Made by a program: the position numbers and the translations under genes. Shown here one piece after another: positions 32,479-32,774 of a stretch of 64,000 nucleotides of DNA (positions are counted from its first letter, which is position 1; every line of letters begins with the position of its first letter). Under the pieces are notes generated by a model, which worked only from the letters and a program-made list of their open reading frames with translations, had not been told where the DNA came from and did not search any database. The DNA is from Promethearchaeati archaeon SRVP18_Atabeyarchaeia-1 (GTDB lineage Archaea > Asgardarchaeota > Atabeyarchaeia > Atabeyarchaeales > Atabeyarchaeaceae): assembly GCA_037308085.1 (NCBI GenBank), contig CP147779.1, forward strand, positions 1,152,001-1,216,000. The letters are read 5' to 3'.

Positions 32479-32494
32479 CGAAAGGTTTTTTAAG
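32479..32494 (+). promoter_or_regulatory. archaeal BRE-TATA promoter
   Basis: CGAAAGGTTTTTTAAG lies about 25 nt upstream of the structured region, with no credible CDS start nearby. Confidence 0.6.
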
Positions 32495-32515
32495 GCGTCA
32501 AAGCAACAATAATAA

Positions 32516-32774
32516 CCAGAGGGAAGTGGGAGTCGTGAGTTACAGCTGAGCTTACTGGAGGCGGCGATTGACCTCGTGTTTTTTCTCCCCTAATGGGTTT
32601 TTCAGCAGATAGATACTACCTCCCCCATTTCCGCGCGAGGTCCGCTACAGCCTCCAGTTCCGTGATTTCTTTTCTCACCTTCTGCTCGGACAGACGACCG
32701 AAAGACACGGTCACATCTTTTCGGAGACTCGGTCTCACGCGTCCGTTTCCCGCAGCTCCTCCAGACTACCTTGG
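32516..32774 (+). ncRNA. candidate structured ncRNA or long leader of unknown family
   Basis: nested long-range helices whose G-U pairs work only on the + strand; upstream promoter (see findings). Confidence 0.6.

Follow-up and report, generated by a model that had tools for sequence, protein, structure and literature searches.

The window analysed here is a 64,000-nt stretch of the genome of Promethearchaeati archaeon SRVP18_Atabeyarchaeia-1 (GCA_037308085.1, contig CP147779.1), corresponding to C1:1152001-1216000 of a complete genome of 2,808,651 bases, and positions are those of the window unless another locus is named. It holds an RNA element flanked by a gene for a small Cys-pair protein and by a universal stress protein gene (usp), a gene order that is retained in relatives. 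The small protein (32216-32425; 64-69 aa with a Cys-x2-Cys pair) is conserved directly upstream of the RNA gene in all six Atabeyarchaeia copies, which stem from three genomes and three metagenome contigs, and it has no match in NCBIfam. A BRE-TATA-type motif at 32479-32494 on the + strand, taken as the promoter of the RNA gene from its fit to the archaeal consensus, had been picked out at this place by an earlier sequence-only reading of the locus, and it recurs in 6/6 copies, 79-90 nt ahead of the 80-nt segment described below. A second TATA-type motif (32773-32786, + strand), kept in five of the six copies, is probably the usp promoter and bounds the RNA gene; right after it, relatives share a conserved imperfect palindrome (32793-32810), a candidate transcription-factor site. 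The earlier suggestion of an attenuating leader for usp is unlikely in view of this second motif and of homologues that lie beside unrelated genes. The promoter, the G-U pairs and the handedness of a bulge-helix-bulge (BHB) motif all point to the + strand for the RNA gene. Each Atabeyarchaeia genome carries a single copy at a syntenic site, unlike a MITE or other mobile repeat with its many copies, terminal repeats and variable sites, and neither covariance models (R2, R3) nor a BHB descriptor tuned to the motif found further paralogues in this genome.

The sequence-only reading had proposed an unannotated, promoter-driven non-coding RNA gene on the + strand, outside any Rfam family, and this holds; it had also taken a ~250-nt, 6S-like rod as the unit, and here the results differ. 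All eight helices that it listed are present, and among them were the pieces of a BHB, although they were not recognised as one. The BHB is perfect, with a 4-bp central helix (32563-66/32643-46), 3-nt bulges on opposite strands (32567-69 and 32647-49) and flanking helices, which is the shape of a substrate of the splicing endonuclease EndA and matches the published definition (PMC4090602). With the tuned descriptor the site ranks first genome-wide, at a score of 24 vs 15 for the next closed candidate. In tRNA splicing, EndA leaves two bases of each bulge on the 5' side of its cut. Applied here, the rule predicts cuts at 32568/32569 in the 5' half of the motif (32563-32569) and at 32648/32649 in the 3' half (32643-32658, including the 3' strand of the outer stem at 32650-58), and the release of 32569-32648. 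The 5' strand of the outer stem lies at 32554-32562. The remainder of the precursor consists of a 5' carrier arm (32517-32568, its start placed ~25 nt after the TATA motif) and a 3' carrier arm with side hairpins and a closing stem (32659-32765, its 3' end likewise an estimate), all on the + strand. Against dinucleotide shuffles, folding of the whole 266 nt is modest (z -2.1), whereas that of the core at 32554-32658 is strong (z -5.0; 0/200). Across copies, z-scores lie between -2.2 and +0.8 for the precursor and between -2.3 and +0.4 for the two arms joined directly to each other. The stem that closes the 5' arm on the 3' arm is loosely kept in most relatives, with a different sequence.

The conserved product that is detected as RNA is an 80-nt ring (32569-32648) from the middle of the proposed rod. 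Seven RNA runs contain words of the region, and the four examined (X1, X4, X5 and X7; X2, X3 and X6 hold a small share of the words) are metatranscriptomes from four studies of peat, soil and sediment. They yield cyclic contigs of 110 nt, that is, 80 bases plus a 30-base wrap-around, with no letters differing from the ring sequence. The joint from 32648 to 32569 is present outright in one run and as loose ends in the three others, and it is absent from DNA (214 loci). A contig of this form is what a circle yields, and we therefore interpret the product as a circular molecule; because its ends coincide with the cut sites predicted from the BHB, we ascribe it to BHB processing. In the contigs, as expected of an EndA substrate, the boundaries of the product fall behind base two of either bulge and are connected to each other: it starts at 32569 and ends at 32648 in all four runs. 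The earlier reading had expected transcript ends near 32518 and 32765; instead, 32569-32648 is the sole piece of the element that is covered in these runs. The evidence consists of assembled contigs from relatives with an identical ring, as opposed to raw reads of this organism, and such contigs do not directly show strand, level or covalent closure. The empty arms and neighbour genes are not taken as evidence of absence.

The predicted fold of the ring is a short rod. On the + strand, an inner stem (32570-32579, pairing with 32633-32642) closes a 7-nt loop over the joint, followed by an unpaired, U/C-rich internal loop of 12 nt (32580-32591), in which the length of the U-run differs by one base among copies, and by a 26-nt apical loop (32598-32623) closed by 32592-97/32624-29 and containing the anti-Shine-Dalgarno-like word ACCUCC at 32618-32623. 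At 32586-32591 and over the joint, the single AUG of the ring shares bases with a stop codon, so that the 80-nt form reads as one 26-codon turn, which is probably due to chance. Translation of the circle was considered and rejected, as this once-around frame shifts and is lost in three 79-nt copies.

The conservation of the element is concentrated in the ring. Over the six Atabeyarchaeia copies, 32569-32648 is 97-99% identical, compared with 38-57% for the flanking arms (38-57% for the 5' arm outside its last 14 nt and 47-54% for the 3' arm, the folds of which differ). For reference, RNase P RNA is 87.5% identical between this genome (G000) and a relative (G002), and 96% in its best 100 columns. 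In alignments with relatives a core of ~103 nt is nearly invariant, and both arms are unalignable. The two side hairpins described earlier exist where they were placed, but they are not conserved, and the pseudoknot proposed for one of them falls in the same unalignable sequence and is not conserved either. Covariation is found in the core stems: among 22 family sequences the central helix is 100% paired and 11/11 pairs of the outer stem show compensatory change, with a covariation score of 0.428 vs 0.216 for shuffles, a comparison inflated by relatedness, and <=0.17 with slid partners.

Iterated covariance models, which gave one distant match at first and then 16, finally recovered homologues in 19/19 Hermodarchaeia genomes, with up to 5 copies each. 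At least four subfamilies can be told apart among them, with a TATA-type motif ahead of each and differing gene neighbours. In a third lineage, 3/4 genomes contain the same scaffold around an interior of another sequence; this lineage is probably Baldrarchaeia, judging by most of the named relatives of a neighbouring protein. No neighbour gene is common to the lineages, and the homology of the three rests on the scaffold, not on the interior. Predicted ring sizes are mostly 77-108 nt across the family. The stems vary. From one lineage to another the unpaired C/U-rich interiors differ, but inside a lineage they are almost unchanged, also when paralogues are compared. A scaffold-pattern search of 400 Asgard genomes gave real matches only in Atabeyarchaeia, Hermodarchaeia and the probable Baldrarchaeia; other Asgard families gave no credible match (150 genomes by model, 400 by pattern), in a search that diverged rings would escape. 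Pattern matches in viral contigs and in one Thermomicrobiaceae contig are chance matches in coding sequence, none of them scored by model R2. No loop words were found in viral contigs, and the 21-mer of the apical loop was absent from metagenome contigs, where close copies differ by one base. Two kinds of variant deserve mention in their own right. In L137 (G078) and L142 (G033), paralogues retain the invariant loop but have lost the bulges; they may be linear versions of the same RNA and offer a natural control for the need of circularity. Some subfamily A rings of Hermodarchaeia (L034, L038, L040, L043, L046, L102 and L148) carry a partial duplication of 16-22 nt, which adds a hairpin and leaves the invariant loop undisturbed.

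Comparison with known RNA families gave no assignment. The Rfam search that the sequence-only reading had suggested returned no real match at gathering and E-value thresholds with the sequence in genomic order, and the ring doubled so as to read over its joint matches nothing else in the genome, rRNA included. The family models of RNase P, SRP, tmRNA and 6S RNA do not match at the element; in agreement with the earlier reading of no RNase P or SRP signature, both of these RNAs are encoded elsewhere in the genome. The absence of a tRNA signature was confirmed with ARAGORN, which finds no tRNA in the window or in the joined arms, and a tRNA intron is rejected on the same ground. A box C/D guide is rejected as well, with box C (RUGAUGA) in 0/73 interiors and box D (CUGA) in 5/73, a CUGA over the joint being lost in G002. 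An H/ACA guide would have a free 3' ACA tail, a K-turn or K-loop and a bipartite pocket; it is rejected, as a ring has no 3' end and there is no Rfam match.

We propose that transcription from the promoter at 32479 would give a ~250-nt precursor ending before the TATA-type motif at 32773, the arms of which would serve only to build the BHB. EndA would cut at the two predicted sites, and 32569-32648 would then be sealed by a ligase, probably RtcB, into a stable 80-nt ring as the functional product. The genome contains two matches to the splicing-endonuclease family PF01974 over the cut-off and an RtcB-like ORF, identified by motif only; with the ends of the ring and the shape of the BHB, these enzyme genes make it very probable that EndA and RtcB form the ring. 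For the gene as a whole, we put the probability of a stand-alone gene dedicated to a BHB-made 80-nt ring at roughly 0.88.

The ring could instead be a by-product, an intron released from the usp 5' UTR or from a host RNA in which the joined arms would be the functional part. Such an origin has precedent in the BHB intron published for the 5' UTR of Haloferax HVO_1309 (PMC7714728) and in the wealth of tRNA introns in the Atabeyarchaeia lineage (PMC11291895). The pattern of conservation is, however, the opposite of that of an intron, with the insert kept and the flanks variable; the joined arms show no likeness to a tRNA or any other genomic RNA and fold weakly, usp has a promoter motif of its own, and the arms of Hermodarchaeia precursors are little more than stem. 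We consider this origin very improbable. That the cyclic contig is an artefact, caused by a tandem repeat in the DNA of some unknown relative or by template switching or ligation during library preparation, is scarcely credible: DNA may be present in RNA libraries and the evidence is in the form of contigs, but four studies show one and the same joint, located precisely where the cuts are predicted, the sequence is single-copy in 6/6 genomic copies, and the joint is missing from the 214 DNA loci.

Further observations concern the rRNA and tRNA genes of these genomes. The 16S rRNA gene of this genome (L017 965-3575; G000:C1:448464-451074) spans ~2.6 kb vs 1.5 kb in Atabeyarchaeia-2 and is split by several inserts, of which those in helix 45 (~3382-3542) and near helix 28 (~3243-3277) are BHB-shaped. 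The last ~30 bases of 16S, comprising the anti-Shine-Dalgarno tail and the hairpin that follows it, recur ~1 kb downstream (L017 4525-4552), behind what may be a homing-endonuclease remnant. The distance from 16S to 23S is ~3.8 kb (L017 3575-7368), with protein ORFs between them, and the 23S gene comes with a BHB processing stem and with a separate TATA-type motif near 7105. In Hermodarchaeia, 16S genes lie in 4-5 pieces, split by inserts (L060, L065, L070 and L071 of G095; L057, L064 and L069 of G023), and short hairpin inserts with a common core are found in 16S helix 45 of G059, G095 and G037 (L061, L070 and L076). ARAGORN finds only 22 tRNA genes in G000, most of them with introns, which agrees with the intron-rich tRNAs reported for the lineage (PMC11291895).

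Our best guess for the role of the ring, and a tentative one, is that of a decoy, whose C/U-rich loops would be held open to present a CCUC(C) word like that of the 16S rRNA 3' tail. Such a decoy would bind Shine-Dalgarno sequences, or proteins that read the 16S tail, and would damp translation initiation or small-subunit maturation. We favour it because CCUC is the only 4-mer present in 66/66 family rings, where it is unpaired in most (unpaired probability 0.86 in this ring), and because GGAGG is the most enriched word ahead of start codons in this genome. The argument is weakened since CCUC is common in C-rich interiors and the loops show no preference for start regions: the word was chosen post hoc, 18-70% of shuffled interiors contain it by chance, depending on the lineage, in rings of the third lineage it is roughly half paired, and ring loops pair with start regions no better than shuffled loops do, without enrichment. 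It is possible, if doubtful, that the ring is a scaffold or sponge for proteins; Sm-like or KH-domain proteins would bind its U-runs and C-patches, which transfers the earlier Sm/Lsm proposal to the ring. Runs of at least four U occur in 69/73 members, as do runs of at least four C (69/73), and although the long unpaired loops do not change within a lineage, the genome contains no long complement to them; against this, interiors differ wholly between lineages and paralogues, and rings of the Baldrarchaeia type have neither kind of run.

A part in 16S rRNA maturation, as a guide or chaperone like eukaryotic U3/U13, appears unlikely. The ring would pair with the 3' strand of helix 44, near the decoding adenines, and with helix 28 and the central pseudoknot, and matches of 8-13 bp to one or both sites exist in every subfamily tested (12 bp for the first loop of this ring); the ring is also conserved at rRNA level. 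The matches are nevertheless no better than those of composition-matched shuffles (3/60 in the best case, 10-57/60 for the other loops), the same 16S sites are present in lineages where the ring gene was not found, and no covariation between guide and target was seen. Matches to 23S, RNase P and SRP RNAs were all short and unranked. We think it rather improbable that the ring is an antisense regulator of specific mRNAs. One perfect 18-nt complement in its own genome covers a stop codon and a ribosome-binding region, and several Hermodarchaeia paralogues have different interiors; but the 18-nt site is missing from both relatives with the same ring, and, outside the genes of these RNAs, none of 19 genomes contains an exact match to the 14-mer that is invariant in Hermodarchaeia, with one-mismatch matches near background. 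An antisense reading as a Shine-Dalgarno sequence with a start codon and a stop codon was rejected: the stop is lost when the length of the A-run changes, and both subfamily B and the copy described here lack the start codon.

In the literature searched, the BHB circles described for archaea either arise as by-products when tRNAs, rRNAs or leaders are spliced or are known RNAs in rearranged form, whereas this gene seemingly exists solely to make a small ring of an unfamiliar family. A search of the literature, with most subscription papers outside its reach, turned up neither this family nor any stand-alone gene that makes an unfamiliar BHB ring. The ring is kept more tightly than RNase P RNA, and a sister class has several paralogues of it. 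This points to an RNA function, absent from annotation, in archaea closely related to eukaryotes. As a tentative wider picture, at least three Asgard classes may possess purpose-built small circular RNAs, made by tRNA splicing from disposable arms, that would pair through C/U-rich loops with rRNA or ribosome-binding sites as guide or regulatory RNAs without a counterpart in known families, and that might be a forerunner of the intron-released guide RNAs of eukaryotes. At 80 nt, the ring is a target suited to in vitro synthesis and pull-down, its sequence could mark the activity of these uncultured archaea in RNA data, and the gene is a natural parallel to engineered circular RNA systems based on tRNA introns.

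Among known systems, bacterial 6S RNA is likewise a stand-alone gene for a rod with an unpaired bubble. The Asgard element differs from it in that there is no Rfam match, the rod is not conserved and the product is a ring. Archaeal tRNA introns circularise, and that of tRNA-Trp is a box C/D guide (PMC12558985, PMC4090602); they share with the ring the BHB, a similar size and a circular product with a possible job of its own, but the ring has no tRNA host, box C is found in none of the 73 interiors, and the insert is conserved instead of the flanks. The 46-nt BHB intron in the mRNA 5' UTR of Haloferax volcanii HVO_1309 (Schwarz et al. 2020, PMC7714728) likewise gives a circle that stems from neither tRNA nor rRNA, and it too lies ahead of a protein gene, whereas the Asgard ring is a separate unit, followed by a second promoter motif and set among unrelated neighbours across lineages. 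Circular pre-16S/23S rRNA and circular 23S rRNA are known in archaea (PMC12918454), and there too a processing stem with a BHB flanks the real product and the flanks are carriers; the Asgard product, in contrast, is 80 nt long and has no sequence match to rRNA. The circular permuted SRP RNA of Thermoproteus tenax is reported to come from a transcript that the tRNA splicing endonuclease cuts and that is then closed into a functional circle (Plagens et al. 2015, PMC4731332). It resembles the Asgard ring in its stand-alone gene, endonuclease-cut transcript and stable functional circle, but it restores a known RNA of 300 nt, while the 80-nt ring matches no Rfam family and a normal SRP gene lies elsewhere in the genome. 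The route of biogenesis is already known; its use in a gene seemingly dedicated to a ring is, within the literature searched, new.
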